DNA of 64,000 bases, taken from NCBI GenBank assembly GCA_017503375.1, contig JAFVTF010000067.1:4042-68041 (forward strand). The letters run 5' to 3'. This stretch comes from Lentisphaeria bacterium. Lineage in GTDB: Bacteria; Verrucomicrobiota; Lentisphaeria; Victivallales; UBA1829. The notes under the pieces are model-generated. The model saw nothing but the letters and a program-made list of their open reading frames with translations. It did no database searches and had not been told where the DNA came from. Made by a program: the position numbers and the translations under genes. Shown here in pieces: positions 9,315 through 58,928 of the stretch. Position 1 is the first letter of the stretch, and every line of letters starts with the position of its first letter.

Positions 9315-10106
9315 TTAATTGGCTGATTTGACTTTTAGCGTTTCAGAAGGTGTTTTTCCTTCCTTATAGTAAATATAATTCCAATTGTTATATGCCTTTT
9401 CACTGCAGAGTTCCATGTGGATCTTTCCCGGTGAAGTTGTTGCTGTATGACCATCGGCATACATGATATTGGCTTTTTCATTATGTCTTGTATGAATCTG
9501 GGATTTATCGGATTCTGTTGTCAGTTCAATGTAGAAATATTGTCCTCCGTACCATGTTCCGACAGAACCCATATGCAGCGAATCAGCTCCGATCAGCTCA
9601 CTGGATGGGCTTTTTGATTTCCCAATACGGTAAAGACGATCATAATAAGCCCCGTTTTTGATTTCAAAAGCCCGTGAAGGATCAGTTGTAAGAAATACAT
9701 CAAGGGGGAAGATTCCGTACGTTGATTTCATCCGGCTTGTAAGCATGGGATTGGCAACAGCCTGCGGCTGAATTGTCGGACATGACAGAACCTTTGTATC
9801 TGTAAGATATCCTCCCTGATAAGCCTTGAAAAGCCACCCCGGATTGCTTGAAGCATCTGTCGCGTTGTAAACCCGGTATGCATACAGACCGTTGTATTCA
9901 TCGGAATACATTCCGACTCCCAGCATGACTTGTTTCTGATTATTGAGACATGACGAGGTTTGAGCCGCTTTTCTTGCATTGTTCAGTGCGGGCAACAGCA
10001 TTCCCGCCAGAATCGCAATGATGGCGATCACAACCAGAAGTTCGATCAGGGTGAATGGAACAATGACTGAATGGCATTTCCGGCATGAAAAACTTTTGTT
10101 AATCAT
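9315..10106 (-). CDS. Prepilin-type N-terminal domain protein of the H-X9-DG / DUF1559 family
   Basis: [33 protein letters not shown]-terminal helix. C-terminal [12 protein letters not shown] (H-X9-DG). AAGGAG RBS. Position -1 is Pro, not Gly. Confidence 0.85.
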
Positions 10107-10123
10107 CTTTTTTCTCCTTGAAT

Positions 10124-11935
10124 TTATATTATAGTTGGATTTTCCGGTAAATCAAATGAAAAATCTTCATTCCACAATTTTATATTGTTCTTTTTACAGC
10201 TGACAAGCAGTTCATTTACAGCCCGGATCAATGCTCCGGAGGCTGTCGTGAACCATGGAAGTTTTTTCAGTTCATACACTTCAAAACATTCATAAAAACA
10301 CCCCGTAGAATTTTCTGCGGCATCTTTCAGATATTTCAGAGCCTTCCGGAAATCCCCTCTGCGGATTTCTGCCGTTGCAATCACTCCGGCATACCAGGAT
10401 GAAATGTTTTTTCCGCCGGAATATTGTCCTGCAAACTCTGCAATATTCGCTTCTGTTTCTTCCAGAGCTTTCTGCTGAAGCGGATCTTTCGGGCAGACTG
10501 TCTGATAGGGAAAAATTCCATGATACATTGCAATTGAATTCTGTTTGCATCCGGGATAGGGAACATATCGTTCATTTTCAGCTGGAAGTGCATGGGTCAG
10601 CTCTTCAGAAAGTTTCTTCCATTTTTGCCGGAGTTCATGATCACAATCAAGATATTCCGCTATTTCCGCCGCAGCCCGGAAAACTGCGATCCCGCCGCAA
10701 GTTGTTGAGTACCCCCTTTCAATGAATTCCCCAAAACGTTCCATATCGGTACATTTCCCGATGTATGCTCCGGTAACGGAATCGTAATAAACAGCACTGC
10801 GCCGGTAATATTCTGCGCACCCATGAATCAGCGGATATAACACTTCCGAAAGCAGTTGTCTGTCCTGAAGAAATTTCCAGCATTCCCATGCACTGACTGC
10901 AACATTCGCCATGTGAACATATCGGTCCATCCAGAAGCCCGGCGGGGAACCTTCCGAACCGTCTTCCCGTGTTTCCCACGGATAACGTGCCGCAAGATTT
11001 TCTTTCGGACATATATGAGTATAGCATGTTCTTTGAATCGCATTTTCCAATACGGAAAAACGGAAACGGTCGATTTTTACCGCTTCTTTGAAATGACCGC
11101 TTGTCAGAAATGCTCCGTGTACATAAAATTCATCATAGGCGAAAAATCTGCCTTCCCAGTGTGATGGAAATAAGCCGGTCGGAACAGACCAGGGAGTTGA
11201 GGAAATTTTCAAATGGTATTGTGCCGTCCGGTACATTTTCATAAGAGCTTCATCGGGAATAGAAATCCAGCTTTCATTCCAGTATTTTTCCCATTCAGAA
11301 CAATGCGTTTTATACAGAGTATCAAAGTTTTCTCCTTTTGCTTCATCATCAAAACAGAGCAAAATATCAACGTTTGAATTTTTTGTTGTAATTGCCAATT
11401 CATGATCGGAAGAACAGAATTCTGCATCCGGAGCAATCATTTTTATAAAGCCGGAATGATTCCCGGAATTATATTCCAGCCGATCTGTTCCCTGTTGGAC
11501 AATCTGAATGGAACGTTCTTTCGGAAGATTGTAGCTGAATTTGTATCCCGGAACATCTCCCTCTGAGATGATGTTTTTCCGGATCGCAATGATTTCCCGT
11601 TCTGCATGACAGAAAATTTTTGTATGGATTTCAATCCCAGAGCTGTATTTGACGTTACATTCACAATATGCGTGATCAAGATCGATTGATTGGGAAAATT
11701 CCAGAACATCTCCGCTTTTTTCCGGGGATTGCACAAAATTCCCGAACCGGATCAGATTCATACTCTGATCATTATAACGTTTCCCGGAACGGACGATGAC
11801 CGGCTGCATCCCGCAATATTTCTGCTGCTTCATTTCTCCTTCATAATCGACCATGAAGGATAGTTTCCCGTTTCCCATCGCCAGGGGAACATAATGCCGT
11901 TTCCTTTGACTTTTATCACTGTATGATATTTTCAT
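10124..11935 (-). CDS. GH65-like (alpha/alpha)6 glycoside hydrolase/phosphorylase, no signal peptide
   Basis: [19 protein letters not shown] and [16 protein letters not shown] resemble the GH65 catalytic-domain motifs (FWD.E.F and PW.S...G.E). The start is moved to ATG 11935, which has a GGAG 6 nt upstream. The ORF-track start at 11947 lacks an RBS. Confidence 0.5.
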
Positions 11936-12056
11936 GGTGTACTCCATATTTATTCCGCTGTTAATAATTTATATTGAAAATAACTTGAAATCAAGAAGTT
12001 ATTGTGCTATTTTATACATGAACTGGTCATAATCAATACATAAAACAGGAATAATA

Positions 12057-12890
12057 ATGAGAGAAAAAGAAGATTATAAAGTAAATTTTTTGCGGTATCA
12101 GGATATGAGTGAACTGCCGATTTACCCTTTTTGTGCTGAAATTTCATTGCGTTATATTCCGCGAAAAGTCAACAGAAATCAATATCCGTTTTTATTGATT
12201 TGCGGAATTCAGGAAGGAAGCGTGCGTTTCGTTTTCGATGACCGGAAAATAACGCTGAACGCAAATGATGTGCTGCTGATTCCACCTTATACTCCATATT
12301 ATTTTGAATCATATTCGACAGGCGGACATTACAAAAAACTTGCCTTGGAATTACAGGGAAAACTGCTGAATGAATATCTTGATTGTTTGAAGATAAAACA
12401 GGTTTGCTGCCATAAAAAAGAATTATGGGAAGAATTTATTTCCGCATTTGAAAAAATCAATGAATTCAATGCAGCAGGAAATAAAGGGGAAATCCCGGAG
12501 ATATCTGCTGTTATTATCAGACTGCTGCACCATTTCTCTCTTCGGAATCAAACTGAAAACGATAATGGAGATTCTCTTTTGCTGATGGCTTGCAGATGGA
12601 TCGATCAGAACCTGGATAAACCGATAGATCTCCGTTCATTGGAACAACATCTGAACGTCAGCCGTTCAACTCTGGGACGGATTTTCCGGAAAGGAAAAAC
12701 AGTCAGTCCGAAAGAATATTGGATCCGCCGCAGATTGGAAAAATCAGAATACCTTTTGAATCATTCGGAATATTCCATCAAAGAAATCTCTTTCCAGCTG
12801 GGATATTCCTCACAATTCCATTTTTCCAATGAATTCAGACGGTTCTATGGGCTTTCCCCGCTGGCGTACCGGAAACTCGGACAAAACTGA
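12057..12890 (+). CDS. AraC-family transcriptional regulator (cupin-like sensor plus HTH)
   Basis: C-terminal SIKEISFQLGYSSQFHFSNEFRRFYGLSPLAYRK AraC HTH signature. Divergent from the GH65-like operon. Confidence 0.85.
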   Translation: MREKEDYKVNFLRYQDMSELPIYPFCAEISLRYIPRKVNRNQYPFLLICGIQEGSVRFVFDDRKITLNANDVLLIPPYTPYYFESYSTGGHYKKLALELQGKLLNEYLDCLKIKQVCCHKKELWEEFISAFEKINEFNAAGNKGEIPEISAVIIRLLHHFSLRNQTENDNGDSLLLMACRWIDQNLDKPIDLRSLEQHLNVSRSTLGRIFRKGKTVSPKEYWIRRRLEKSEYLLNHSEYSIKEISFQLGYSSQFHFSNEFRRFYGLSPLAYRKLGQN

Positions 12891-14908: not shown

Positions 14909-17782
14909 TTACAGGAATTTCAGTGTAACATCAGAAATTGCCGCCGCCTCTGTTCCGCGCATTTTGAAGAAGATCATCAGGAATTTATTCCCTTTCAGAG
15001 CATCCCCCTTTACACGGAATTTGACCGGTGCAAAACCTTTGTTGGAAACCGGACGTGCCCAGAGAACATTCTGCCCCGCAACCCAGTTATTCTTCTTCCA
15101 TTCGTAGATGATTACACCGATTTTACCGGATTTACTTTCCGCCGGACGCGCCGCATTCAAGGTCACTTCCATGACGTTTCCGGGTTTTTTGTTCCAGTTG
15201 AAGAGATAATGTCCGATGGTATATGCGTTCGGATTCCGGTTGACCATTGCTGTTTTTCCGAACAGTTTTTCATGGGTCGATTTTTCACGGGGAACGATCT
15301 TCGCAGAAGAAATTTTCTTTTCCCGTGTTTGTGATTTCTGCGCGGCAGCATCGCCAATCCGGATCAGACGGATATCTGCAATATACAGAGGTTCATTGAC
15401 TTTGAACCGGGATGGACGGATAATGATATTCGCTCCGGTATGCCGGGGAAGAACTGTCGCAACCTGTGTGAAAGTCTGCCATTCATTTGCCGGAATGCGG
15501 ATCTGCCGCAGATCTTCCCATGCGTTGTTGACTCCGTTGGTGCAGACCCAGAGGGAAAGATCCATGATCGCCTGCTGTGATTTTGACAGAACCTTGAGCG
15601 ATACCGCCCAGATTCCGGGATCAAGTTTCTCCGTGATCGTGAATGAAACGATATGACTCAACATGATATCATCCGGATTCGGTACTCCGTTGGGATGCGC
15701 CGGAAGGAGCTTGAGAGTCTTTTCGCCCTTGTAAAGCACTTCACTGGTAATTTCATAAGGAACTGAAGTTTTGATCTTCATTACACTTACCGGTTTTTCC
15801 AGTTTCGGGTTGGAGAAATAATTTTTGGCTTTATCTCCCTGAGTAACAAGAGAAATCATTTCTTTGACCGCCTTCGGCATATCCGGCAGAGCGGAAAGAG
15901 CTTTCAATCCCTCCTGAACTTCTTTGTGTTCCATAAAACGCAGAGATTTGAGAAGTCCGGCAGAAAGTAGTACTGAGGCATCCGGCTCATATAATTTCCG
16001 GGTGATATAATACTGTTTTGCTTTTTCATTAGAAAAATCCGCATTGGTGAAATAAGCAGCGGCACGTTTATGTTGAGCAATCAGACGCGGAAACTCCTTT
16101 TTCAGGAAATGAAAGTATGCCAGTGTATCTTTAACATTTTTGAATTCTCCGTTATCTGCTGCCCGGTATGCCATTCCTTGGAACGTTGCAATACAATCCA
16201 GATTTTCCATTTGACGGACAAGCAGGGCAGCACGGGCTTTTTCTCCGGGTGTTTTTGCCAATGTTTCCACTTTGAGCGCAAGGTCAAGCAGTTCTTTGGT
16301 GAAGCCCGGTTTCAGCGCAAACATGTGGTTTTCATTCGGATACATGTAAATATAGTTCCGTGCGCGGAAGATGGGTGTCTTTTTCATTTCTTCGGAAAGC
16401 CAGTAATTTTCGCACTTCTGATAGAGTTCTTTCAGGTACGGAGCGGCTGCTTTTCCGGCATAGCGGTTATACCACTCTTCCAGAAGTTTTTCCGGATCTG
16501 CATTGATATCTTTCAGAAGATTTGCAACAAGATAGGTCTTCGGACCGTCAAGAGCATCTGCCATACGGGAGTTTTCTCCGAAATAGGCTCTGCCGCCGTT
16601 GGCATAAAGATATTTCAGCAACGCAGCATGATTCTTGAAGTTCACGCGGGGGACCAGAAAGTTTCTGCCCCAGCAGTAATCCCAGATCCCGGTTTCTTTG
16701 ACCATTTTCCCCCACTCATTGATCACTCCCCAGTGACGTTCCTTTACTTTCGGATCCAATGCTCCCAGAACAGAATCCAGAGTCATCATGGGAACCACAT
16801 TTTTGTGAACCGGGAAATCCGGAGTCATAATGGTTCCGGTATAAGCGAGAATACCGATCCGGAGATCAGGATATTCTTTACAAACTGCTTCTGCAACACG
16901 GTTTACAAATGTGTAATAACTGTTCGCATGATTCTGTCTGTCATTGACAAATATTCCCTTGCGAAGCCCTTTATTCATGTTCTTGCAGCTTTCACATTCA
17001 CAGAATCCGCTATTGTCGTTGACGCCCAATGTGATGGATTGCGCCGGTCGTTTTTTCAAGATCTCAAGCGTATTTTTTACAGCTTCTTTTGCGGTCTCCG
17101 GATTGGAATAACAGGGTTGCCAGTTATTATAAATATTTGCAGGCGGTTTCACCAGTTTTTTTCCGCGGATGACCGGCATAATTGCAGCGGGCCAGCCTTT
17201 CCGGTATTTATGCGGCGGAAAAGAATAGACAGGAATCCCATGCGTGTATTGGAATTTTCCATTATCATAAAAACCAAGTTCCACAAGGTGATTCGGGAGC
17301 AGCCAGGTTGAACGCCGCAGAGAAAAACCTTCTTTGGATTTCATCGGTTCTGTCGGAACCTGAACATTTTTCATCGGTTCATACTGGAACATGCAATTTT
17401 CGATTCCGAGAAAACGGGTGTCTGCTCCCTTTTCCAGAACAGCATTCAACGCCTGAAATATGGAGGTGTCCGTTGCGGTGATCTTCATCACTTTTTCTGA
17501 CGGAAATTCGATTTCCCAATTGAAATGAGTTCCCAGTTTCGGATTCTTTTCCAGCACGACCTGAATGGTGTACGGAAGATTTTTATTTGTCTTCGGTAAT
17601 TCCGTTCCTGTGACTTTTTTCAGATAAGAGTTAAAAAGATCAATATGTTCAAGACTTTTTTCATCCGTATCTTTTGCCAGTTGAATTTGAGCGGTCGGTT
17701 TTGCATTTTTGACCAGATGGAATTCTGCAGCGGTCAATCCGCTGACAGCCAGCAATCCCATCAATAAAATTTTATGTTTCAT
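14909..17782 (-). CDS. Secreted DUF4838-type putative glycoside hydrolase (paralog of 6358-9297)
   Basis: Signal peptide. AEFHLVKNAKPTAQIQLAKDTDEKSLEHIDLFNSYLKKVTGTELPK opening. AGGAGG RBS. Confidence 0.6.
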   Translation of the reverse strand: MKHKILLMGLLAVSGLTAAEFHLVKNAKPTAQIQLAKDTDEKSLEHIDLFNSYLKKVTGTELPKTNKNLPYTIQVVLEKNPKLGTHFNWEIEFPSEKVMKITATDTSIFQALNAVLEKGADTRFLGIENCMFQYEPMKNVQVPTEPMKSKEGFSLRRSTWLLPNHLVELGFYDNGKFQYTHGIPVYSFPPHKYRKGWPAAIMPVIRGKKLVKPPANIYNNWQPCYSNPETAKEAVKNTLEILKKRPAQSITLGVNDNSGFCECESCKNMNKGLRKGIFVNDRQNHANSYYTFVNRVAEAVCKEYPDLRIGILAYTGTIMTPDFPVHKNVVPMMTLDSVLGALDPKVKERHWGVINEWGKMVKETGIWDYCWGRNFLVPRVNFKNHAALLKYLYANGGRAYFGENSRMADALDGPKTYLVANLLKDINADPEKLLEEWYNRYAGKAAAPYLKELYQKCENYWLSEEMKKTPIFRARNYIYMYPNENHMFALKPGFTKELLDLALKVETLAKTPGEKARAALLVRQMENLDCIATFQGMAYRAADNGEFKNVKDTLAYFHFLKKEFPRLIAQHKRAAAYFTNADFSNEKAKQYYITRKLYEPDASVLLSAGLLKSLRFMEHKEVQEGLKALSALPDMPKAVKEMISLVTQGDKAKNYFSNPKLEKPVSVMKIKTSVPYEITSEVLYKGEKTLKLLPAHPNGVPNPDDIMLSHIVSFTITEKLDPGIWAVSLKVLSKSQQAIMDLSLWVCTNGVNNAWEDLRQIRIPANEWQTFTQVATVLPRHTGANIIIRPSRFKVNEPLYIADIRLIRIGDAAAQKSQTREKKISSAKIVPREKSTHEKLFGKTAMVNRNPNAYTIGHYLFNWNKKPGNVMEVTLNAARPAESKSGKIGVIIYEWKKNNWVAGQNVLWARPVSNKGFAPVKFRVKGDALKGNKFLMIFFKMRGTEAAAISDVTLKFL

Positions 17783-17803: not shown

Positions 17804-18568
17804 TTATTCTGAATAAGTGAAAATCGGGGCAGATGGGGGTTGAAACGTTGTTGTATTGGCCCAATGGAATTCACCTCTGTGGCTGACTGTATTACCGGCA
17901 ACAGTCACGACATTATCAACACCCTGGTGGTGGGAATCCGGCTTATCTGTCAGACGTCTGGTATTATATTCTGCCAAACCATATATATTGGGATTTGATT
18001 GTGCTGCATAACTGTGAGTATCTGTCATAAAAATTATTTTTGAAGCTGGAACCTTTGATTTCCCAAGTTTATAAGGGGAATAGAATTTAGGAGGCGCCTG
18101 AAAATATCCCAGCAATTGGTTTACAGTGTAGCTTCTGTTGATAGTTTTTCCGCCTTCCTTCTGGAACTCATAATTATACGTTCCGTTGGCAACCATACCG
18201 ACACCCCGGGAACGGTCACCCGGACAATCGAAAATTTTGATGGAAACTCCTCCTCGTTTGATGTCGGTGTAACCGGCATAATAAATGGTATGGAAAGGCG
18301 AGAGTTTTGCATGGGTAGATTTATTGTATGCAATCGGGAAAAAATCATTCTGGTCACCGGCATAGGATGTAAAAACCTGATGCGCCTGTTTCAGATTGGA
18401 AATACAGGATGCACTGATTCCCTTTGCTCTGGATTTGTTCAGAGCCGGAAGCAGCATTCCCGCAAGAATTGCAATGATCGCAATAACCACGAGCAATTCG
18501 ATCAGCGTGAAGCACATGTGCTTCATGCCTGTACACAGGCATGAACCGTTGTTCTTTGACATTTTCAT
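17804..18568 (-). CDS. Prepilin-type N-terminal domain protein, H-X9-DG family variant (H-X9-AG)
   Basis: [30 protein letters not shown]-terminal [12 protein letters not shown]. The start is set at ATG 18568 (MKMSKNN...), preceded by AAAGGAAAC. The ORF-track start at 18613 is an upstream extension. Confidence 0.8.
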
Positions 18569-18720: not shown

Positions 18721-20103
18721 TCACTCGTAAAAACGCAAAACGTTCTGAATGACTTTATCTTTCGTGATCGTTCCATTCAAATATTGCTCAAAATAAGGCA
18801 TCATGGCACAGCCCACCGGAGTCGGATAACGTTTCGGGTTCTGACGGCAGCGGGCAAAATATTTCAATAATTCCTTTTCAGGAGCAATATCAATAGTAGA
18901 AATGGATTCTGTTCTGACAGGAGCGGAATGCAGTTTTGTCCAAATTTCATCCTGAACAGATTTTGATAAGAGGTATTCGATAAACAAGAGTGCATGATGA
19001 ATGTTTTCAGAATGTTTCCCGATCCCGATCATACCGCTTCCACCCCAGTAATAACAGTCTTTCCGCGGGTTATGATAAATCGAAGAAATATATTGTTCTT
19101 CTGCAGTAATTCCGGTTGAGAATACAGAATTTGAATAGGAGGGAACACAGAACACATTCATTTCAGAATTTCCATTCAGAATTCCCCAGGAGATTTCATT
19201 TGTCATGAAGACATTTTTTCTCTCTTTGACCAGTTCGATCCGGTCAAAGACAATATTACAATGTTCCCGGATGATTTCCGGAGTAAAATCCACAGGAACA
19301 CCCAGATCGCGGCAGATATCATAATAGAGATTAAAAACCGGATATTTTTCCGGCAGAAACTGATTCACTTTCCGGAGCATTTCTTCCATCGGCATATTTC
19401 CGGCGGAAACACCATCGAATAAATGAAATTGTTTCAGCCATTGGACACGCTGAAATGTGAACATGTAAGTGTACGCATATTCATTTTGCAGCGGAAATGT
19501 TTCGTTGAGCATTCCGGAAAGAAACTCATCAGAATGGAAAAGTTTTTTCCAGGAAGGCTTGACTGGCATCAGCTGGTCCAGGTAACTTTTTGCCTGGAAA
19601 ATAGGTGTCGGCATCACTGCCAGATCAAAATTCCCGGACTGAAAATAATCCCAGTAAGAGGTATCGATACTTTCAAAATTATTACAGTATTGAGCTTTCA
19701 GATGCACCGTGGGAACCAGTTGATTGAATTTTTCGATTAATGAGTTCCAGAAATTGATCTGATCAGGCTTCGTCTCCGGAAGGAGGAGCGTCATGCTCTT
19801 ATTCATAGATCCGGTAACTTTATTATATGCACCACGTGGTGTATTGTTTTCTGCTTTTTTGTGATTGACATAGGTTTCTTTTCCGCGCCGGACCAATCTT
19901 CCGGATTCCAGAAACGGTTCCAGTGCTTTGCGGATCGTCCGCCTGTTCACTTTGATTTCCGCTGCAAGTTCACGTTCCGATGGAAAACGCATATTATGTT
20001 CAGATTTAAGGATCCAGTAATGAAACTGGTGTCTTAAGATCAGATAAAGCGGCTTGTCTGTCCGATTTATATAGAAAGGCTCTTTCAGTATTTCCGGAAT
20101 CAT
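18721..20103 (-). CDS. One-component regulator: GntR-type winged HTH fused to an ABC-type sugar/solute-binding-protein-like domain
   Basis: N-terminal FPSERELAAEIKVNRRTIRKALEPFLESGRLVRRGKETYV (GntR HTH). The C-terminal ~370 aa include WGGSGMIGIGKHSENIHHALLFIEYLLSKSVQDEIW, typical of family-1 extracellular solute-binding proteins. No signal peptide. Confidence 0.7.
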   Translation of the reverse strand: MIPEILKEPFYINRTDKPLYLILRHQFHYWILKSEHNMRFPSERELAAEIKVNRRTIRKALEPFLESGRLVRRGKETYVNHKKAENNTPRGAYNKVTGSMNKSMTLLLPETKPDQINFWNSLIEKFNQLVPTVHLKAQYCNNFESIDTSYWDYFQSGNFDLAVMPTPIFQAKSYLDQLMPVKPSWKKLFHSDEFLSGMLNETFPLQNEYAYTYMFTFQRVQWLKQFHLFDGVSAGNMPMEEMLRKVNQFLPEKYPVFNLYYDICRDLGVPVDFTPEIIREHCNIVFDRIELVKERKNVFMTNEISWGILNGNSEMNVFCVPSYSNSVFSTGITAEEQYISSIYHNPRKDCYYWGGSGMIGIGKHSENIHHALLFIEYLLSKSVQDEIWTKLHSAPVRTESISTIDIAPEKELLKYFARCRQNPKRYPTPVGCAMMPYFEQYLNGTITKDKVIQNVLRFYE

Positions 20104-20468: not shown

Positions 20469-22052
20469 TTACTTCATAATCAGCTCATCTTCCCAGCCGA
20501 TGAGATTGCCTTTTTCTGAATCAAAGTTCACTCCGATGATGTAGATTTCCCGTTTGTCAAGCAAATACTTTTTATAGTATTCTTTTTCCTTGATCTGTTC
20601 CAATGCTGTCGGATCGTTGTCGAGTTTGAATTCAAAGATGAATATAGCATCTTTGGTCTGCACCACAGCATCTATTCTGCCGTCATTGGTTGCTGATTCT
20701 GCTTCAATATACAATCCAAGCAAGCGGAATATGGAGAAAAAGATTGTCTGGAAAGTCGATTCCTGCTTCTTGTGTGAAGTATAAGGAATTCCGGCAAAGA
20801 ATACTTCCATTGCTTTGCGGAGTTTTTTCAAATCCTTATTCAACAAAGCCGTTGCTATTTCAGCAGTAAACTGCACTGACACAGTTTGAGTCTTGCCGGC
20901 ATAACTGTTCAGAATGTAGGCACTGAATGCTCCTGCGACCTCACGGTTGGGAAAATCCAGAAAATACCAGGTCTGTCCGAAACGTTCTTCGGTTCCTTTT
21001 ATTGTAATGTAGCCTGTTTGCAGCAGTAACGTCAACGGGTCGATATTATCGATTTCAAAGGCATTGAATGCAACTTGCGGTACAGCGTCTTTCAATGCTG
21101 TCTCGAAATTAAAATCTTTTTGCTTGGTCAGCTCCATCAAAAATGATGGTGTTCCGGTGGAAAACCAATAATTATTGAATTCTCCACCATTTTCAAAGAA
21201 GTACGCCAGAGACACGGGATTATAAACCGTTTTTGCATTTTTGTGGAATCGATAACCGTTGTACCAATTTTTGATTTCAGTTTTGTATACTTCTATATCC
21301 GTCTCTCCGGCAAGAGCCGCAATGCGGTCGTCGAAGTTTGCTTCCAACTCGTCCTGGGTATAACCAAACATCGTTGCATAACGGGCATCCATAGTGATAT
21401 CCGTCAGATTATTCAAATCAGAGAATAATGAAACATGACAAAACTTACTGACTCCGGTAATAAAAACAAAACGCAACATGCCGTTTTTTTCTTTTATCAC
21501 AGAGTAAAATGTCCTTAATGCTTCAAGGAAACGAGAACGTTTTTCTTGAGTTATATTGTTGAGAATAGGTTTGTCATACTCATCCAGCAGTATGACAACA
21601 TCACCATCTCTGTCATGTAATTTCTTTATCAAAACATGGAACATTGTATCAGAAGATGATACCTGCAGTTCTATATTATTGATGCTTGCCTGTTCAAGAA
21701 GCATTTGCTGAAAACGCTCTTCCATTTTTTCGAGAGTACTGAAATCCCGCCCATTCATATCCAAATGAATCACAGGATGTTTTTTCCAGTCATAAGGTTT
21801 GTCATAGATGGCAAGCCCTTTGAAAAGTTCTTTTTTGCCTTCAAAGAGTGCCTTCAGTGTAGACACGGTGAGAGACTTGCCAAAACGGCGCGGACGTGAC
21901 AAAAAATACATTCCCCGGGCAGGTCTTATCAACTGCCAAATGTATTCTGTCTTATCTACATACAGGAAATTTCCCTGTATCAGGTCTTCAAAATTGTAAA
22001 CACTGCTGGTAATATCTTTCATGGTATCTACTCCCGTTGCTGTAATATACAC
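20469..22052 (-). CDS. Predicted AAA-ATPase (N-terminal) fused to a PD-(D/E)XK nuclease-like domain (C-terminal)
   Basis: FEDLIQGNFLYVDKTEYIWQL...YFLSRPRRFGKSLTVSTLKALF is the hallmark opening of the 'predicted AAA-ATPase' family. C-terminal GRIDAVVQTKDAIFIFEFKLDN...ALEQIKEKEYYKKY is PD-(D/E)XK-like. Confidence 0.85.
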   Translation of the reverse strand: MYITATGVDTMKDITSSVYNFEDLIQGNFLYVDKTEYIWQLIRPARGMYFLSRPRRFGKSLTVSTLKALFEGKKELFKGLAIYDKPYDWKKHPVIHLDMNGRDFSTLEKMEERFQQMLLEQASINNIELQVSSSDTMFHVLIKKLHDRDGDVVILLDEYDKPILNNITQEKRSRFLEALRTFYSVIKEKNGMLRFVFITGVSKFCHVSLFSDLNNLTDITMDARYATMFGYTQDELEANFDDRIAALAGETDIEVYKTEIKNWYNGYRFHKNAKTVYNPVSLAYFFENGGEFNNYWFSTGTPSFLMELTKQKDFNFETALKDAVPQVAFNAFEIDNIDPLTLLLQTGYITIKGTEERFGQTWYFLDFPNREVAGAFSAYILNSYAGKTQTVSVQFTAEIATALLNKDLKKLRKAMEVFFAGIPYTSHKKQESTFQTIFFSIFRLLGLYIEAESATNDGRIDAVVQTKDAIFIFEFKLDNDPTALEQIKEKEYYKKYLLDKREIYIIGVNFDSEKGNLIGWEDELIMK

Positions 22053-43948: not shown

Positions 43949-43968
43949 TCTATAGAACCTTCTGTTTA

Positions 43969-52586: not shown

Positions 52587-55500
52587 TTATCGCGTCCATT
52601 CCCGAACAGTTTTGGTTCCGGAGGCAAGTTCTTCCGCTTCCAGTTTCCATTTTCCGTTCGGCTCATTCTGACCGGGAACATATACAAATTCCGCAGAACC
52701 GTTTTTGGCAGAGATGAACTGTTCCATTTTCTGTCCGTTCGGCATCGTCAGCAGAACACGGATCGGCTGGATTCCTTTCAGCTGTTTCTGTTTTCCATTC
52801 AGAACAGAAATCTTGAAGACAGCTTTTTTACCTGCCTGGAATGTTGGAATGTTTTCAACTTTCACTGCACCGACAGCTTCAGGGTAGACAATCAGAAGTT
52901 TTCCTTCCACGGGTTTGAAGTCAAGAGAAACCTTTCCGTTTTTCAACTCAAGTTTCTTCTTTGCCGGGAATTCATAGACAGCTCCATTTGTTTTAAGAGA
53001 AACATCCGCTTTCAGCGGCAGACCTGCATCGTAAACAGATTTATATTTTTTACCGAAGTAATCTCCGAATGTCCGTTTGTCATTCATCAGGAATACATAT
53101 TTGCAGTCGCCGGATTGAAGAGTCCGGATGTACAGTTCTGTGGATTCTGTATCGGCAAATGTGGAACCTGCCTGTTTGAATTTCCGCAGAGCTTTTGCAT
53201 AGTTCTGCTGTTCTGCATACATTACATCGGCAGTAAATCCCTTTTTATGCTTGACACTCCAATAAGTCGTGTCGGTGATTTTCTCGGTTTCGATGGGGAA
53301 CTTGACCGCTTTCGGGAACAGTTTTGCCCAGGGGGAATCCGGTTCCGTCAGGATCTTTCCGCCTTTATCAGCAAATGTTTTGAGTTTATCAAAGACATCC
53401 TGCGGCAGATGACTTGTACGGTAAAGCAGGATCTGGTCATAGTTAGCCAGTTCTCCTTTCCGGATGGTTTCTTCTGTGATGATCGCTGTCGGAATATTTG
53501 CTTTCCAGAAGAGATTCAAAATCGTATTCGCAGATGAATTTCCATAACCGCCCCAGTAGGATCTGTTGAAGATCTGGGAACCGAAAGAAAGCATCAGAGC
53601 TGTTTTGGGCTGTTCTCTTTCAAGATGGCGTGTTGCACTCCAGAGAGGTTTGACAAATTTCTTTGCAAAATCACTGACCGTCTGTCTGATGTGCTTTTCC
53701 CGGAATTCCGGTTTTGAAGTCGGCAGCAGGAAATTCAAATCGTAAATTTCGATCATTTCCGGTTTTGCTGCAAAGCCGAGATGAAGTGCTGTCAGATAAA
53801 TATTTGCAGGCTGAACACCTGCCCAGCGTCCTTTGGCAGGACCGATCTTATAACTGTAAAGCCAGAGACTGGGGTCAAGCTGGAATTTTTCCGGACGGCC
53901 GCCGGCACGGCAGGCGGAAAGCATGCTTTCCACAGCCATAAATGTTTCTCCGGCATCCGGATGACAATAGAACCATGTTCCGGCAAAATCCATTCCTTCC
54001 ATACGGGAGGAAAGAGGCACATTGCGGTACGGGTCATGATAGACTTGAATATCGGGACGTTCTTTTTTGATGATTTTTGCGACCTGAGCGCGGATGAGGT
54101 TATCTCCGGCACCGCGGTCCCAGAACCATGACATGAAACGGTAGTATTTGTTGTCCGTCGGGAAAACTGCGGGGGTGGCTTTTTTCACACTCTGCGGGAT
54201 TCTGACAACGCGGCCTGCGGTATTGTCGATTTCCATATTGGCAGTTTCAGAGATCGGCGGTTCAAAGCCCAGTTCTTTTCTGGCTCTGTCAATATCTTCT
54301 TTTGCGTATCCCTGTTCCAGAAAGTTTTCAATTTCAGAGTCCAGAAGAATACGGTTGATTGCAGGATAATCTTTGAGGAATTTTGCAATTTTTTCCATGC
54401 CGGAACAGATGTATTTGATGGTTTTTTCATTCCGTGCATTCAGCCGAATGCTGCGGGTTCCGTCTTTGCGGACAACGCACATATCGTTTCCGCCTGCGGG
54501 AACAGCGGAGAGAAGTGCAATCTGAATCCCGATCGACATATTGTTCAGCATGGCGTAGTCTGTCCGGGAGGCAATCATTTTTTTGCGGTACTGAACATCA
54601 TCTTTCGGGGTAAGATTCAGGTTGATGCCGTTGAAACCGTTTGCATTCATGACAGCAAGATCGCCGCCTGTCCAGCAGTAGAAACGGTAAAGATCTTTCT
54701 GCGGGCGTCTCACAACGGTGATATTCATTTCAGCAGACAGCTTTCCGTCGGTGACTTTGACTGTGTTTTTTCCGTAATTCAGGTCAGAAGCTTTGACGGA
54801 AATTGCCTGTTTGACTGTTCCTGTTGCGGGAACTGTTGAAACCGAACGGGATTCTTTTTTCTTCTGATACACCACTTGCATTTTTCCGGGTTTCATCGCA
54901 TCGGGTGTCCGGTTGATGAATTCAGCGGTCATAGCGATGGTTTCATCATCATAAAAAACGGTACGGCAGGTATCTGTGCTCAAACGGATTTCCTGTTTCG
55001 GGAGTGCCACAGGTTTTTTCTCAACGGCATATCCGGAATAGCTCTTGACAGAAACTTCTGCAAACTGAGCTTTCCGTTCGTGTACGCCGATTGCAACAGT
55101 TCCTTTCTTGAAGGTATCATCCAATGTCTGCAAAAGTTCAATGCTGTTGAGACGGACGTGGATCATTCCTTCATGTCTGCCGATGGAGATTGTCAGCGGG
55201 GCTGTTCTGCTTCCGGATGTCGGAATCTGAGTATCAACAGATGTTCTGGAAGCAAGCAGAGAAGCCTTTCCTTTTTCCACTTTGTAAAGATTCAGTTCAC
55301 GCTGGGTGTTGTTTCCATCCAGAACAAGACGGTAACAGTTGTTATTATCCTGACGGCAAAATTCCAGAATGATTTTTCCCATATTGTCGACAGTAATGAC
55401 ACGTGCGGTCAGAACGAAACTTTCGGGCATGATTTTGTCATTGACTGCCAGCGCATTAACGTCGATATGATCACTAAATTCTCTGTATCCGAATTTATCT

Positions 55501-56087
55501 GAATACCATTTCCCGCTGACAGGTTTGAACGGGATATTTTTGGAGGGCGCAACAAAATGAAGGTGAGTTGTTTCAGTTCCTGCGGAGGTGAATTTTTCCG
55601 GACGGACAACTTTTTCAAGAATTTTAACGTTTGTGACTTTTCCGGGGAAAATAAATCTGTTTCCGGGATATTTTCCGATCTGAAGTGAGTGCTGATTGAC
55701 GAGCGGCATCGTGATGTTTTCTTTTTCGCCGATCTTGGTTCCATTCAGATAAATTTCTCCTTTTCCGTTTTCAAAACAGAGGGTGATCCTGCTTGTTTTG
55801 AAAAGTTCCAGTTCCACGGGAGCGGAAATTCCTTTGCCGCGGTTGACCCGGAAGTTCAAATGAGATTTGGCTCCGAATCTTCCTCTGGAATAGTCCAGAG
55901 ACCAGGAGTGTTGAGCTGAATCATATCCTTTGGTCAGAATTTGAGTTCTGTGTGCGGCGGGAAATTCTCCCATGGGGAAAACATCCGCCTGAATGGTCAT
56001 TCCTTTGTTCTGTGCTACCGCTGAAAGGGATAATAATCCGATTCCGCAAAGCAGCAGACGTTTCATTGTTTTGTGAAGGTGGTTCAT
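52587..56087 (-). CDS. 1166-aa secreted multidomain protein (LamG/concanavalin-like N-terminal modules plus a putative glycan-enzyme core)
   Basis: Signal peptide MKRLLLCGIGLLSLSAVAQ. LamG-like segment GEIYLNGTKIGEKEN...IGKYPGNRFIFPGKVTNVKILEK. The rest was not confidently assigned. AGGAG RBS. Confidence 0.55.
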   Translation of the reverse strand: MNHLHKTMKRLLLCGIGLLSLSAVAQNKGMTIQADVFPMGEFPAAHRTQILTKGYDSAQHSWSLDYSRGRFGAKSHLNFRVNRGKGISAPVELELFKTSRITLCFENGKGEIYLNGTKIGEKENITMPLVNQHSLQIGKYPGNRFIFPGKVTNVKILEKVVRPEKFTSAGTETTHLHFVAPSKNIPFKPVSGKWYSDKFGYREFSDHIDVNALAVNDKIMPESFVLTARVITVDNMGKIILEFCRQDNNNCYRLVLDGNNTQRELNLYKVEKGKASLLASRTSVDTQIPTSGSRTAPLTISIGRHEGMIHVRLNSIELLQTLDDTFKKGTVAIGVHERKAQFAEVSVKSYSGYAVEKKPVALPKQEIRLSTDTCRTVFYDDETIAMTAEFINRTPDAMKPGKMQVVYQKKKESRSVSTVPATGTVKQAISVKASDLNYGKNTVKVTDGKLSAEMNITVVRRPQKDLYRFYCWTGGDLAVMNANGFNGINLNLTPKDDVQYRKKMIASRTDYAMLNNMSIGIQIALLSAVPAGGNDMCVVRKDGTRSIRLNARNEKTIKYICSGMEKIAKFLKDYPAINRILLDSEIENFLEQGYAKEDIDRARKELGFEPPISETANMEIDNTAGRVVRIPQSVKKATPAVFPTDNKYYRFMSWFWDRGAGDNLIRAQVAKIIKKERPDIQVYHDPYRNVPLSSRMEGMDFAGTWFYCHPDAGETFMAVESMLSACRAGGRPEKFQLDPSLWLYSYKIGPAKGRWAGVQPANIYLTALHLGFAAKPEMIEIYDLNFLLPTSKPEFREKHIRQTVSDFAKKFVKPLWSATRHLEREQPKTALMLSFGSQIFNRSYWGGYGNSSANTILNLFWKANIPTAIITEETIRKGELANYDQILLYRTSHLPQDVFDKLKTFADKGGKILTEPDSPWAKLFPKAVKFPIETEKITDTTYWSVKHKKGFTADVMYAEQQNYAKALRKFKQAGSTFADTESTELYIRTLQSGDCKYVFLMNDKRTFGDYFGKKYKSVYDAGLPLKADVSLKTNGAVYEFPAKKKLELKNGKVSLDFKPVEGKLLIVYPEAVGAVKVENIPTFQAGKKAVFKISVLNGKQKQLKGIQPIRVLLTMPNGQKMEQFISAKNGSAEFVYVPGQNEPNGKWKLEAEELASGTKTVREWTR

Positions 56088-56107: not shown

Positions 56108-56857
56108 TTAGTTGCTCCCGGGGTTTCCGAAATATCTGTTTCCATCAATAAACCACATGGGACGGTTCAGTCTGAGAGGCCCTGTTGTGAATTTTGTGAT
56201 GTCGACATGCCCATCAGCACGTCCTGTCACATTATTGAAGTTATGTCTCATTTTAACATCTATCGGAACCGGGAGTTTATCTGAATCGTATCCGCTGTAG
56301 TAGGGATCTGTTCCACTGACAGAAAAGGTTGTGCCGTCGTTCCATTCCATCATATAGACCAGAACTGACGGCTTCAGAATATTGGTTCTTTTCCGGAGTT
56401 TTCCCGCATTGCTTCCGGCGGAGTCCACTGAAAGAAAACAACTTCCGTTTGTACGGTAACTCAAAGCGAATCCATAATGTCCGTACGGTTCCTTTTTCAT
56501 GAATAAATGCGGGTCGGAAGGACAACTGAAGAGGTTATTTTCTTTCACTGCTGAATTTGTCTTTTTGTAGTAGAGATTTGCAGCGTGCATCCAGTACGGT
56601 GTTGAATAAAACTTGTTCTGATAATTTGCATGAGAGCCGCCGGGGGCGATAAAATCATCATAATCATCACTGTAAAAGTTCAGATAAGTCAGGAGGGACT
56701 TCTCGTTATTGACGCACTGCGTTCTTTTTGCAGAACCTCGGGCGTTGTTCAATGCGGGCAATAACATTCCGGCAAGGATTGCGATAATTGCGATCACAAC
56801 GAGCAGTTCAATCAGTGTGAAACTCATGTGTTTTTCTCTGTTTCGGAAATTTTTCAT
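56108..56857 (-). CDS. Prepilin-type N-terminal domain protein of the H-X9-DG / DUF1559 family
   Basis: [44 protein letters not shown]-terminal [12 protein letters not shown]. The start is set at ATG 56857 by identity with the paralog at 58928, including the AAAGGA RBS. Confidence 0.85.
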
Positions 56858-56876
56858 TTTTTTCCTTTCTGTTATT

Positions 56877-58214
56877 TTATTTTTCAATCATTTTACCATT
56901 CAGATTCAGCGGTTTGCCGAATTTACAGTTTTCCATTTCTGTATCTTTGTCGTTGAAAGTTACAACTCCATATTTCCAGCCGGGTTCCTCATTCCATTTA
57001 ATTCTGATCCGGTTGAAACGGACATCCTTTGCATGGGCAATGTAAAACGCCCCTTCCGATTGTGTCTTGCCCCATTCTCCGTAAGGACCTTCAATATTAT
57101 CGGAATGTGGAGTGTGCGTTCCGATACATTCCAGTTCCATATCTTCAAAGGAAATATTTTCAATTCCGGTTCCGGCATTTCCGCTGACGGATATATTTTT
57201 ACTGAAGGTTCCCCGGATATGACGGAAACTGATATTTTTGATCATTTTTGCTGCAGGTTCCGGTCTGGCGCCTTTAACATTGCTCAGAACAAGAATCGGG
57301 TTTTCCACGTTCATTTGCAGATTGGAAAATGAGATGTTTTCGATCTGAACACCAGTATCCGGTTTGGCAAGATAATTGGAAATGATGGCAATGGCGGTTC
57401 TTGTATTGTAGAAGACGATATTGGAGAACGTGGCATTGCGGACAATACCATTTCCCACTCCTATGCGGATTGCGTTGCAGTTCGTATGAAGAATACAGTT
57501 TGTGACAGTCACCAATTCACAGGGCTTTTTGTTTTTGATTCTGGCGTCGGAACCGCGCAACGTGATGCAGTCATCACCGGCATCAATGATGCAGTCGGAA
57601 ATCGTCACCCGGCGGCAGCAGTCAATGTCGATTCCATCCCCGTTGAAAGTCCGCTGATCGTTCAGAACCCTCAAACCGTGGATCTGTACATCATCGCTGC
57701 CATGCACAAAGCAAGTCCAGTACGGAGCATTGTAAAGTTTCAGATCAAGAATCTTGACATTTCTGCATTCCTCGAAAAAGATCATCTGACCGGGACGCCA
57801 GATGCGCATGAGTTCTTCCGGTGAGAATTTTCCATCGATCCTGTCGCAGGTCGGCTGGGTTTTATCCCCGTAAAACGCCTGACGGTTTCCGTCAATGATT
57901 CCGGTTCCGGAAAGGGTGATATTTTCCTGTTCCACAGCAACGATAAAATGAGCTCCGCTGACAAATTCCTGGGAAAATACCAGATTTTGCGGACAGAAAT
58001 CATCTTTATTGTAGTCTTCTTTATCAGGGCTTGCTTTCAAGGTTGCGCCGGTTTCCAGATGCAACCCTCCGTTTGATTTCAGATAAAGGGTTCCGGAAAG
58101 GTAAGTTCCGGGCGGAAAGTAAACCATGCCGCCCGCATCAATAGCTTTCTGGATAGCTGCTGTATCTTTTGTGATTCCATCACCGACAGCACCGTAATCT
58201 TTTACGTTCCGCAT
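56877..58214 (-). CDS. GH28-family glycoside hydrolase (polygalacturonase-like), no signal peptide
   Basis: [26 protein letters not shown] opening, [18 protein letters not shown], and a beta-helix repeat pattern. Confidence 0.75.
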
Positions 58215-58232
58215 AAGTAAATAACCTCAAAA

Positions 58233-58928
58233 TTAATTATACCGGGAGCCAGTCCTAGTCCATTTATAAAGATCATTCATGCAAGCATCTGTCGGCAGTT
58301 TCATGATTTCCACATGTCCATCAGCATGACCGGTATTTGCTTTCATATTATGTCTTGCCATCAGCCAGTCGATACGTTCCTGACTTGCGAGATTTCCCCA
58401 TCCGGAATAATAAGTTGCAGTACCGCTAGGACTGAAATTTGTTGATTTTTCCATATCCCACATCCAAACGTGTTTGGACGGCTGTCTGATGGAGACCCGT
58501 TTATGCCGGAGTGTTGCGTTGTCGTAGGGGAAGCAGTTTGTATTTACCCAGTAACTGAGTCTGTAACCATAGAATCCGCTGGTCCAGAGATGTTTGTCGG
58601 AAGGACAGCTGAAAAGACTGTTTTTACCCGTAGCTTTCGGGGTCTTGTAGTAGTTGTGATGAATGACCCCCATCCAGGTATCATTCGTTGCTGTAGGAGT
58701 TTTCATTCTGCTGAGCGGCATGAAACCGTCACTGTCATCACTGTATGCATTGATGAACAAAAGCAGCTGTTTGATATTTCCCTTGCAGGAAGCCATTCTG
58801 CTGTTTTCCCGTGCGTTGTTCAGAGCAGGAAGCAGCATCCCGGCGAGAATTGCGATAATTGCGATCACAACGAGCAGTTCAATCAGTGTGAAACTCATGT
58901 GTTTTTCTCTGTTTCGGAAATTTTTCAT
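58233..58928 (-). CDS. Prepilin-type N-terminal domain protein of the H-X9-DG / DUF1559 family
   Basis: [44 protein letters not shown]-terminal [12 protein letters not shown]. Confidence 0.85.

Follow-up and report, generated by a model that had tools for sequence, protein, structure and literature searches.

In the pilin-like proteins of the phylum Lentisphaerota, the need for Gly or Ala at position -1 appears from sequence comparison to have been dropped throughout the family simultaneously, while the core from +1 onward is absolutely constrained. The loss was encountered in five paralogs of one genome but extends across the phylum. Either Lentisphaerota cut their pilins under a looser rule, or the pilins work with the leader still attached.

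Five pilin-like genes and their relatives

The window (the whole stretch of DNA analyzed, 64,000 nucleotides) is from a gut or rumen Lentisphaeria genome. Its pilin-like genes have hundreds of relatives across the phylum, with the same loss at -1 ahead of an unchanged pilin N-terminus. A six-frame scan returned exactly five occurrences of the pilin N-terminal motif, each with the same 25-aa core. All five lie on the minus strand in ORFs that were confirmed at the following coordinates:

9315-10106, minus strand: g1, pilin-like H-X9-DG protein, 263 aa, 17-aa leader, Pro at -1
9981-10058, minus strand: g1 core (9981-10055) and -1 codon CCA (10056-10058)
17804-18568, minus strand: g2, pilin-like protein, 254 aa, Cys at -1, start taken as the ATG at 18568
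18437-18514, minus strand: g2 core (18437-18511) and -1 codon TGC
31071-31793, minus strand: g3, pilin-like H-X9-DG protein, 240 aa, 10-aa leader, Ser at -1
31689-31766, minus strand: g3 core (31689-31763) and -1 codon AGT
56108-56857, minus strand: g4, pilin-like H-X9-DG protein, 249 aa, 12-aa leader, Ser at -1
56747-56824, minus strand: g4 core (56747-56821) and -1 codon AGT
58233-58928, minus strand: g5, pilin-like H-X9-DG protein, 231 aa, leader as in g4, Ser at -1
58818-58895, minus strand: g5 core (58818-58892) and -1 codon AGT

The first-pass annotation had described five paralogs with an identical core and P, C, S, S and S at -1, and both the ORFs and the six-frame scan bore this out. 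Judged by their sequences, the five are typical of the H-X9-DG/DUF1559 pilin-like family, which is greatly expanded in Lentisphaerota. Each combines a leader that is short and basic with a class III (prepilin-type) hydrophobic N-terminus that does not vary, an alpha1 helix of about 50 residues and a divergent globular head. PF07963 and TIGR02532 scored above their cut-offs in profile searches (21.3 and 21.7 bits for g1, where PF07596 and TIGR04294 were weak), and PF07596 did so for g5 (27.2 bits); the GspG and PilA equivalog models scored far below cut-off. The H-X9-DG motif is present within the C-terminal sequence of g1 and is degenerate in g2 (H-X9-AG). In a profile search of the PDB, Phe+1 fell on the first residue of the mature proteins PilA (6xxd, E = 1.4e-14), PilE1, PilE and GspG (5wda), and the hydrophobic N-terminus matched theirs position by position. 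Modeling shows a predicted pilin-like fold for the family: the AF2 model of g3 (mean pLDDT 82.6) has a helix at 13-63 and a beta domain, and its top Foldseek matches, although weak, are the full-length pilins FimA and PilE.

The proteins share with PilA, PilE and GspG, which are substrates of PilD/GspO, the short basic leader, Phe+1, Glu+5, a hydrophobic segment of about 20 residues opening the long alpha1 helix, and a predicted lollipop-type fold. They differ in lacking Gly/Ala at -1, in having bigger heads, of about 200 aa, with a C-terminal H-X9-DG, and in gene location: scattered in glycan-degradation cassettes, not in pilus/T2SS operons. Also comparable are the H-X9-DG/DUF1559 paralogs (TIGR04294; PF07596, "SBP_bac_10") of Planctomycetota and Verrucomicrobiota, which have the same architecture, a near-identical core and the C-terminal H-X9-DG. 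They too have multiplied massively as paralogs, with 205,682 cluster representatives reaching E <= 1e-3. The core ends in ...AGMLLPALN in Lentisphaerota, ...LLLPAVQ in Planctomycetota and ...LLPALAKAK in Verrucomicrobiota.

Position -1 across phyla

Gly or Ala was found at -1 in 122 of 125 pilin-type N-termini outside Lentisphaerota (Planctomycetota, Verrucomicrobiota, Armatimonadota, Proteobacteria and others) and in 3 of the 24 from Lentisphaerota genome loci (Fisher p = 2e-19). Whether the H-X9-DG/DUF1559 family at large carries a canonical -1 residue, which had been left as a check, depends on the phylum: 68 of 69 sampled members from Planctomycetota and Verrucomicrobiota have G/A, against the same 3/24 in Lentisphaerota. 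Four further Lentisphaerota samples, conserved-pilin orthologues among them, gave G+A frequencies between 9 and 20%; the values were about 9% for 120 homologues, 13% for 124 exact cores from metagenomes and 20% for 118 representatives non-redundant at 50% identity. The anomaly reported for the five genes is real but not special to them. The accompanying premise that the canonical residue is Gly is too narrow, as in Planctomycetota, Verrucomicrobiota and Armatimonadota the rule is "G or A", with Ala about as frequent as Gly. No description of the non-G/A pattern in Lentisphaerota pilin-like proteins was found in the searched literature.

Across Lentisphaerota 17-19 different residues occur at -1, and at 3.70 bits, compared with 3.0-4.0 bits at -2 to -8, this position varies nearly as much as the other leader positions, with a mild enrichment of S, N, G and P. 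Pro is found in g1, in 8/59 conserved orthologues and in 2/24 genome loci. A residual class III layout is visible all the same: Lys or Arg stands at -2 in 56% of leaders, the net charge is at least +2 in 84%, and the shortest leader has 3 residues. Conservation jumps from none to 100% exactly at Phe+1; Phe+1 and Glu+5 are 100% invariant in more than 300 sequences despite saturated synonymous change.

The same switch at -1 appears in a conserved orthologue. A T4P-like operon (pilin, secretin, PilM, Amuc_1100-like, GspE, GspG) of Kiritimatiellia-like and Verrucomicrobia contigs encodes a pilin next to the secretin, and this pilin has G/A at -1. Its Lentisphaeria orthologues are clear (33-36% identity over about 180 aa, with common motifs such as YRxD...PPW(I/L)S(T/S)LYP), and their -1 residues are S15 P8 N7 A6 K6 C4 H4 R3, with one G only. 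Close Lentisphaeria orthologues (78-85% identity to the query) swap Ser and Pro, as in MKKQS vs MKKQP. On the two Lentisphaeria contigs examined the gene is preceded by a GT2 glycosyltransferase gene and not by PilM/GspE.

Glycan-degradation cassettes and possible processing of the leader

A secreted glycoside-hydrolase-like gene usually follows the pilin-like gene immediately, and a GntR-type regulator often precedes the pair. The neighbors in the window are as follows:

6358-9297, minus strand: g1 partner, secreted DUF4838 glycoside-hydrolase-like protein, 979 aa, starting 17 nt after g1
10124-11947, minus strand: GH95-like protein, 607 aa, in the same operon as g1 and ending 17 nt before it
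12057-12890, plus strand: AraC-family regulator, divergent from the g1 operon
14909-17782, minus strand: g2 partner, secreted DUF4838 protein, 957 aa, starting 21 nt after g2
18721-20103, minus strand: GntR-type regulator, 460 aa, upstream of g2
28158-31039, minus strand: g3 partners, two secreted right-handed beta-helix proteins (547 and 407 aa), pectate-lyase/rhamnogalacturonase-like, the first starting 31 nt after g3
31986-33080, minus strand: GntR plus periplasmic-binding-protein-like regulator, upstream of g3
52587-56087, minus strand: g4 partner, secreted 1166-aa protein with a Laminin_G_3 (lectin/glucanase-like) domain, starting 20 nt after g4
56877-58214, minus strand: GH28 polygalacturonase-like protein between g5 and g4, with gaps of 18 and 19 nt
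58949-60409, minus strand: GntR plus SBP_bac_8 regulator at the head of the g5-GH28-g4-LamG operon, 20-nt gap to g5

The gaps between pilin-like and enzyme genes are thus 17-31 nt, and the neighbors have CAZyme domains; the regulator upstream is of GntR type for four of the five paralogs and of AraC type in the g1 cassette. An N-terminal signal peptide is visible in the translation of the g1 partner. Among 94 Lentisphaeria homologues, 63 have a same-strand ORF of at least 200 aa within 200 nt downstream, most with a signal peptide, and DUF4838, GH or CBM domains were present in 18 of 20 sampled downstream proteins. The cassette context of all five paralogs was absent from the first-pass annotation.

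That annotation had set an altered peptidase against an uncleaved anchor, which is the right pair of hypotheses. We give roughly even chances to the reading that the paralogs are still processed, by a peptidase blind to -1, and serve the glycan-degradation cassettes. A single change in the processing step would be the simplest account of the phylum-wide relaxation: an A24-family prepilin peptidase or a replacement enzyme would set the cut from the +1 to +25 segment and the basic -2, ignoring P1. The pilin-like proteins would still be cleaved, after which a type IV filament or T2SS-like machine could pull them out of the inner membrane. Each gene would share its transcript with genes for one or two secreted glycoside-hydrolase-like proteins, in many cases controlled by a GntR-type regulator that senses sugars. 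Synteny alone suggests that each paralog may be a dedicated pseudopilin-like partner of the adjoining enzyme, in substrate-specific secretion or targeting, display, or glycan binding, a role that would have its functional parallel in the archaeal bindosome.

A precedent is the Sulfolobus bindosome, whose sugar-binding proteins have class III signal peptides that the more permissive peptidase PibD processes (PMC4187195). The likeness lies in pilin-type signal peptides on non-pilus proteins that serve to acquire sugars, a peptidase for which greater flexibility near the cleavage site is described, and a functional link to carbohydrate utilization. The bindosome differs in being archaeal, in its sequence-unrelated heads and in working with ABC transporters; Bas-like genes or transporters do not adjoin the pilin-like genes here.

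Known substrates of PibD still have small residues at -1, a further difference. Even this "broad" enzyme, like PilD in mutagenesis, tolerates mainly small residues there, which counts against a relaxed peptidase. So do the variability of -1, close to that of other leader positions, and the occurrence there of Pro, which most proteases accept poorly at P1. Neither the window nor about 0.9 Mb of sampled Lentisphaeria DNA yielded a prepilin peptidase, an assembly ATPase or a platform gene; in a sample of that size fewer than 0.5 matches would be expected.

The main alternative, possible if somewhat doubtful, is that the Lentisphaerota family is no longer processed and that its members are bitopic N-in/C-out inner-membrane anchors. 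The basic leader would keep the N-terminus cytoplasmic, the globular head would sit in the periplasm beside the cassette enzymes, and the core would be conserved for docking (to an assembly-platform-like partner or by self-oligomerization), not for cleavage. The nearly unconstrained -1 (3.70 bits), the commonness of Pro there, including the S/P swap between close orthologues, and the GT2 gene in place of PilM/GspE beside the secretin-operon pilin orthologue all favor such anchors. S, N, G and P, the residues favored at -1, classically cap helix N-termini or form turns; their enrichment is accounted for equally well by an N-capped, uncleaved transmembrane helix and by a relaxed protease. The absence of a peptidase or type IV filament motor from the sampled Lentisphaeria DNA points the same way, but the sampling is far too small for an argument from absence. 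Against anchors stand the conservation boundary exactly at +1 and the complete invariance of Phe+1 and the membrane-buried Glu+5 under saturated synonymous change. In characterized T2SS/T4P systems Glu+5 serves subunit extraction and filament assembly, for which a free N-terminus is needed.

A different enzyme or site, either a non-A24 protease or cleavage by signal peptidase I beyond the hydrophobic core, would make -1 irrelevant, and an unconstrained -1 is compatible with cleavage elsewhere. Candidate enzymes include two tandem Peptidase_C39-like genes in the window (42623-45315). C39 peptidases cleave after Gly-Gly, however, and that motif is absent; the leader has no second conserved small-residue site (G/A unenriched at -2 to -8), an AxA-type site is missing after the core, and a cut there would cost the protein its best-conserved segment. 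We regard this as improbable.

Divergence of the core and start sites

The 75-nt cores of the ten pairs among g1-g5 differ at 10-18 positions, all synonymous. When synonymous codons were drawn at random from the codon usage of the window, 16.1 ± 2.6 differences were obtained. Nine of the ten pairs (13-18 differences) match this prediction, so their synonymous sites are saturated; g4/g5, with 10, is lower than random (P = 0.016). Because of this saturation, long-term purifying selection on the core is supported by the codon comparison. Outside the core the paralogs are 19-28% identical (g4/g5, 41%). The codon differences between g1 and g3 that were first cited for purifying selection and against recent copying (acc/acg, atc/ata, gaa/gag, gtg/gta) are correct, and the argument holds for the nine saturated pairs; it fails in part for g4/g5, where some of the identity lies in a shared tract:

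56778-56863, minus strand: g4 tract, 86 nt, identical to the g5 tract, probable gene conversion
58849-58934, minus strand: g5 tract, 86 nt, partner of the g4 tract, probable gene conversion

The tract begins 6 nt ahead of the ATG, takes in the leader and ends at core codon 15, and outside it g4 and g5 have 54% nucleotide identity; it is probably the product of recent copying or gene conversion. An extension of this to all five genes, in which concerted evolution made the core identical and the -1 residues are hitch-hikers, could draw on this tract and on partial duplicate cores upstream of the real core in some homologues, which suggest recombination at the core. Such an origin is highly improbable and largely refuted: the other nine pairs combine 13-18 synonymous differences with 0 replacements, these 25 residues do not vary between different orders or among metagenomes, and conversion cannot explain a between-phylum difference in -1 usage.

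Nothing was found in favor of an annotation or start-site artefact, in which the proteins would start elsewhere or the family would truly have Gly at -1, and this is refuted by the -1 codons, the good ribosome-binding sequences ahead of the ATGs, concordant gene calls and the recurrence of the non-Gly/Ala pattern across five independent samples. Since the DNA itself fixes the -1 codons, moving the start cannot yield Gly. The ribosome-binding sequences are AGGAG-like or AAAGGAAA, the latter located 5 nt ahead of the g2 ATG; the longest g2 ORF has a GTG start at 18613. Public gene calls agree for g3, g4 and g5: the exact g3 protein is called from the same start on at least 23 public contigs, and g4 and g5 have 249 and 231 aa, respectively, as called in an independent assembly.

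Five pilin-like genes and their common core

A six-frame scan of the 64-kb window found the pilin N-terminal motif exactly five times, in the open reading frames designated g1 to g5. The same 25-residue core begins at Phe+1 in all five, and neither Gly nor Ala precedes it (position -1) in any of them. The first-pass annotation, which had described an identical core with P, C, S, S and S at -1, was thereby confirmed.

Pilin-like genes, with the residue and codon at -1
g1: 9315-10106, minus strand; Pro (CCA)
g2: 17804-18568, minus strand; Cys (TGC)
g3: 31071-31793, minus strand; Ser (AGT)
g4: 56108-56857, minus strand; Ser (AGT)
g5: 58233-58928, minus strand; Ser (AGT)

Phe+1, Glu+5 and about 20 hydrophobic residues are present in all five proteins, at positions invariant in an alignment of 100 sequences, and the leaders preceding Phe+1 are short (10–19 aa) and positively charged. 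The ATG codons of g1 to g5 are preceded by AGGAG-like or AAAGGAAA sequences. Identical products of 240, 249 and 231 aa are called for g3, g4 and g5 in public assemblies, and the exact g3 protein was found on at least 23 contigs from many samples. A start elsewhere that would place Gly at -1, an escape that the first-pass annotation had left open, is impossible: the residue is set by codons fixed in the DNA, so that no choice of start can alter it.

The 75-nt cores were compared codon by codon and differed pairwise at 10–18 positions, all synonymous; the codon examples cited earlier were correct. Independent draws of synonymous codons from the window's own codon usage gave an expectation of 16.1 ± 2.6 differences, and nine of the ten pairs, with 13–18 differences, were saturated. 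Together with an identity of 19–28% between the proteins outside the core, this saturation places the core under long-standing purifying selection and rules out recent copying as the general cause of its identity. The exception is g4/g5, which share a perfectly identical 86-nt tract (56778-56863 and 58849-58934) that begins 6 nt before the ATG and takes in the leader and core codons 1–15; elsewhere the two genes show 54% nucleotide identity. We read the tract as the product of local gene conversion or recombination between two paralogs in the same operon. The earlier attribution of the shared core to selection rather than copying holds in full for every pair except this one, part of whose identity stems from the tract.

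A truncated, in-frame extra leader and core, FTLIELLV(VIAIIAIL), lies 20–60 residues upstream of the complete core in homologues P0100, P0065, P0005 and P0099. These copies suggest that the core is a recombination hot-spot that leaves remnants, and they may cause gene callers to over-extend open reading frames.

Family assignment and the residue at -1

All five proteins passed the cut-offs of TIGR02532 ("IV_pilin_GFxxxE"; 21.7–28.5 bits, cut-off 16.3) and PF07963 (N_methyl; 21.3–33.5 bits, cut-off 21.2). In every protein the TIGR02532 match began at F+1 (profile position 4), and in four the PF07963 match did so too, so that the Gly column of the models was skipped and left unaligned. Judged by profile score and by all motif features but one, the defining Gly at -1, g1 to g5 belong to the prepilin-type N-terminal superfamily. 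The models for GspG, PilA and ComGC equivalogs were matched only through the N-terminal 30–60 residues and far below cut-off (TIGR01710, GspG: 25–34 bits from the N-terminal 50–60 residues, cut-off 88.85), and assignment as a GspG or major-pilin equivalog was rejected on these grounds.

At the C-terminus an exact H-X9-DG motif (RHN...DGH by eye) is present in g1, g3, g4 and g5, and g2 has H-X9-AG. TIGR04294 scored 15.7 bits for g1 and 16.6 for g5 (cut-off 19), with g2, g3 and g4 unreported. PF07596 (DUF1559, SBP_bac_10; gathering cut-off 23.3) scored 27.2 for g5, above the cut-off, and 21.9 for g1, below it, with no match to g2–g4; a precomputed PF07596 match is present in many close homologues. 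By architecture, and with borderline profile scores, the five proteins are provisionally assigned to the H-X9-DG / DUF1559 family. Along the core, the 100-sequence alignment showed invariant F, T, L, I, E and further residues. It also showed two Cys that never vary and a conserved RHN...DGH block, where H195, D205, G206 and H207 are either invariant or conserved above 90%.

AlphaFold2, run on this alignment, gave a confident model of the g3 protein (pLDDT 82.6, pTM 0.81). A 51-residue helix (13-63) is followed by a beta-rich head with strands at 125-128, 161-166, 198-203 and 208-212, and the predicted structure thus has the long N-terminal alpha1 helix and C-terminal beta head of a type IV pilin. 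The best Foldseek matches in the PDB were the full-length type IV pilins FimA and PilE, both weak (best E = 0.17). In a PDB profile search Phe+1 aligned to residue 1 of mature PilA (6xxd, 1.4e-14), PilE1, PilE and GspG (5wda). The closest homologue, at 98% identity, is annotated as from a Lentisphaeria MAG. The family comprised 205,682 cluster representatives at 50% identity with E <= 1e-3, and 25,713 with E <= 1e-10.

Type IV pilins, pseudopilins and their archaeal counterparts are recognised most reliably by Gly (or Ala) at -1, a rule that family models and pilin-prediction software generally incorporate. In the 120 best homologues the position held S27 N13 H9 C9 K9 R9 Q7 and many other residues, with Gly or Ala in 11–12; its entropy was 3.70 bits, like that of the rest of the leader. 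The leaders had a median length of 12 aa across the family, with K or R at -2 in 56% and a net charge of at least +2 in 84%. Neither Gly nor Ala was enriched at -2 to -8, which gives no support to another cleavage site higher in the leader. Long, mutually alike N-terminal extensions (e.g. ...AARRAAEDHH..F..RRS before FTLIELL) were seen in homologues P0015, P0045, P0078, P0103 and P0009; these represent either a conserved upstream element that gene calls of excessive length have taken in, or a true subfamily with a conserved leader.

Phyla were compared with one genome per species, using a degenerate DNA pattern for FTLIEL-x-VV-x-AII that yielded 120 loci with organism names, in which every pilin-type N-terminus was counted in six frames. 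Since the pattern places no constraint on -1, the comparison between phyla is unbiased.

Gly or Ala at -1 in pilin-type N-termini, by lineage
Planctomycetota: 39/40
Verrucomicrobiota: 29/29
Armatimonadota: 15/16
Proteobacteria: 11/11, all Gly
CPR: 11/11
All non-Lentisphaerota: 122/125
Lentisphaerota (Victivallales, Oligosphaeraceae, unclassified Lentisphaeria/Lentisphaerae MAGs): 3/24

The difference between Lentisphaerota (R5 S3 N3 P2 T2 and others) and the rest was significant (Fisher's exact p = 2e-19). Gly and Ala made up 11% and 2% of -1 residues in 124 metagenome genes with the exact core, and 14% and 7% in 118 representatives non-redundant at 50% identity; lineage-wide, the two together amounted to 9–20% across samples. 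As far as these sequences go, the constraint at -1 is lost throughout the phylum and the family in Lentisphaerota. The canonical Gly invoked in the first-pass annotation needs amending, the true rule in sister phyla being "G or A". Its proviso that the family at large might carry Gly, leaving the five genes as artefacts, is contradicted for Lentisphaerota by the survey.

The relaxation also reaches a conserved pilin. Kiritimatiellia-type and Verrucomicrobia contigs carry a T4P-like operon of pilin, secretin, PilM, Amuc_1100-like, GspE, GspG and minor pilin genes, and all pilins read in it had G or A at -1. In four loci (L121, L247, L246, L083) the cluster also includes a gene of about 200 aa; we take this cluster to be of the type that encodes Akkermansia Amuc_1100. 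A clear orthologue of the secretin-adjacent pilin, 33–36% identical over about 180 residues with shared motifs, was found on L125, a human-gut metagenome contig bearing the exact Lentisphaeria core. A search with it returned 59 clusters at E values from 1e-112 to 1e-34, set clearly apart from the next match at 5e-20. Their leaders are typically five residues long (MKKRS, MKKQP, MKRNC and similar), and their -1 residues were S15 P8 N7 A6 K6 C4 H4 R3 G1. Most of the six members with Ala have the leader and core of a Verrucomicrobia locus (L100); members 78–85% identical to the query interchange S and P. The relaxation therefore covers a conserved, probably single-copy pilin as well as the expanded paralogs, and by its distribution it is mapped to the Lentisphaerota lineage.

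No description of this relaxation, of Lentisphaerota pilins or of pilin-plus-hydrolase cassettes was found in the full-text literature searched. A whole phylum that has dropped the -1 rule with the other signal residues frozen offers a natural test of how prepilin peptidases select the bond they cleave, and motif-based pilin finders will miss thousands of its proteins.

Proposed processing of the proteins

The earlier choice between an altered peptidase and an uncleaved anchor stands, extended from five genes to a phylum. The simplest account of one constraint being lost across a phylum and a family, the rest of the signal staying frozen, is one alteration in the factor that recognises the position. 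Two alterations of this kind are conceivable. In the first, the prepilin peptidase, or an enzyme replacing it, would have stopped reading P1 and would still cleave the precursors. We favour this mechanism with moderate confidence because conservation sets in precisely at Phe+1, Glu+5 is buried in the membrane and never varies, and the leader keeps the short, basic class III layout with K/R at -2. In T2SS and T4P, Glu+5 serves subunit extraction and assembly, which require removal of the basic leader. It is possible, if less probable, that cleavage was abandoned and the proteins persist as uncleaved N-in/C-out anchors. In favour of this second reading are the near-neutral variability at -1, the frequent Pro there and the helix N-cap character of S, N, G and P.

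Processing and assembly genes were sought by tblastn in the window and in 120 loci each from genomes and metagenomes, with P. aeruginosa PilD, a GspE core, a GspF consensus, and the secretin and PilM/N of a Kiritimatiellia locus as queries. The PilD query worked, as it picked out a PilD at 1e-31 in a locus of the Patescibacteria group (CPR). In Lentisphaeria these searches revealed neither a peptidase nor an ATPase or platform gene; one secretin was matched, in L125. About 0.9 Mb of Lentisphaeria DNA was sampled without an A24 peptidase, which, at an expectation of <0.5 hits, says nothing about its absence. A protein search with a Kiritimatiellia GspE returned only high-GC Kiritimatiellia/Verrucomicrobia-type operons with pilins all G/A at -1, among them a single record under the name "Lentisphaerae bacterium". 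Pfam scans covering essentially every open reading frame (about 45 window genes) revealed no T2SS/T4P component or A24 peptidase, and extension of the contig at both ends revealed no secretion machinery.

Two tandem, overlapping minus-strand genes adjoining ftsY (42623-44026 and 43969-45315; 467 and 448 aa) encode Peptidase_C39-like domains; as candidates for an alternative leader peptidase they were set aside because the Gly-Gly motif is absent. On a Lentisphaeria MAG (GCA_018265615.1; locus L244, 497-8103) a secretin gene adjoins MacB-type ABC transporter (ABC_tran + FtsX) and membrane-fusion-like genes and is divergent from a pair of genes with overlapping reading frames, one for a GT2 glycosyltransferase and the other for the conserved pilin-like protein; a Wzy_C gene is nearby. 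The GT2-pilin pair recurs on L125 with a divergent secretin fragment. This arrangement could be an exopolysaccharide or secretion module using a pilin-like protein.

Pilin-hydrolase cassettes

Each paralog lies 17–31 nt upstream of a large glycoside-hydrolase-like gene. Four of the five enzymes have a Sec signal peptide, and the GH28 enzyme after g5 has none.

Cassettes of the window
g1 cassette: g1, then DUF4838 (979 aa); GH95-like gene 17 nt upstream of g1; AraC regulator
g2 cassette: g2, then DUF4838 (957 aa); GntR regulator, 18721-20103
g3 cassette: g3, then two beta-helix pectate-lyase-like proteins; GntR regulator, 31986-33080
g4/g5 cassette: g5, then GH28, g4 and a 1166-aa LamG-domain protein; GntR regulator, 58949-60409

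The three GntR regulators have an N-terminal GntR helix-turn-helix and each heads its cassette; two carry a fused solute-binding-protein-like domain (SBP_bac_8, Peripla_BP_3). The window cassettes include no gene for a transporter. Of the 94 Lentisphaeria homologues with enough downstream sequence, 63 had a same-strand open reading frame of 200 aa or more within 200 nt downstream, in most cases with a signal peptide. Among 20 sampled downstream proteins, 18 had DUF4838 (9), GH2, GH20, GH39, GH42, beta-helix, LamG or CBM9/CBM4_9 domains. A pilin-like gene upstream of a secreted hydrolase is thus a general arrangement. DUF4838 has been characterised as a 6-sulfo-N-acetylglucosaminidase family (PMC10570127).

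This synteny suggests a partnership in which each paralog would be a dedicated pseudopilin-like partner of the adjoining secreted enzyme, in secretion targeting, display or glycan binding. A precedent for such signal peptides in sugar-related proteins is the bindosome of Sulfolobus, in which PibD, a permissive peptidase, processes the class III signal peptides of sugar-binding proteins (PMC4187195). In a wider and speculative picture, Lentisphaerota would have rewired class III processing so that P1 is irrelevant, through a re-specified prepilin peptidase or a new enzyme. This would support hundreds of pilin-like "adaptors" per genome, each encoded beside and working with one secreted glycoside hydrolase in pseudopilus-based, substrate-specific enzyme secretion, display or glycan capture. 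Such a system would be the bacterial equivalent of what the bindosome is in archaea, and a different solution from the Sus-type polysaccharide utilisation loci. The tight pairing in gut and rumen Lentisphaeria points to an unstudied organisation of polysaccharide degradation.

Between the cassettes, and unrelated to the relaxation at -1, lie a GH94 cellobiose/chitobiose-phosphorylase-like gene (39121-41514) and a gene predicted to encode an AAA-ATPase with a PD-(D/E)XK nuclease (20469-22052).
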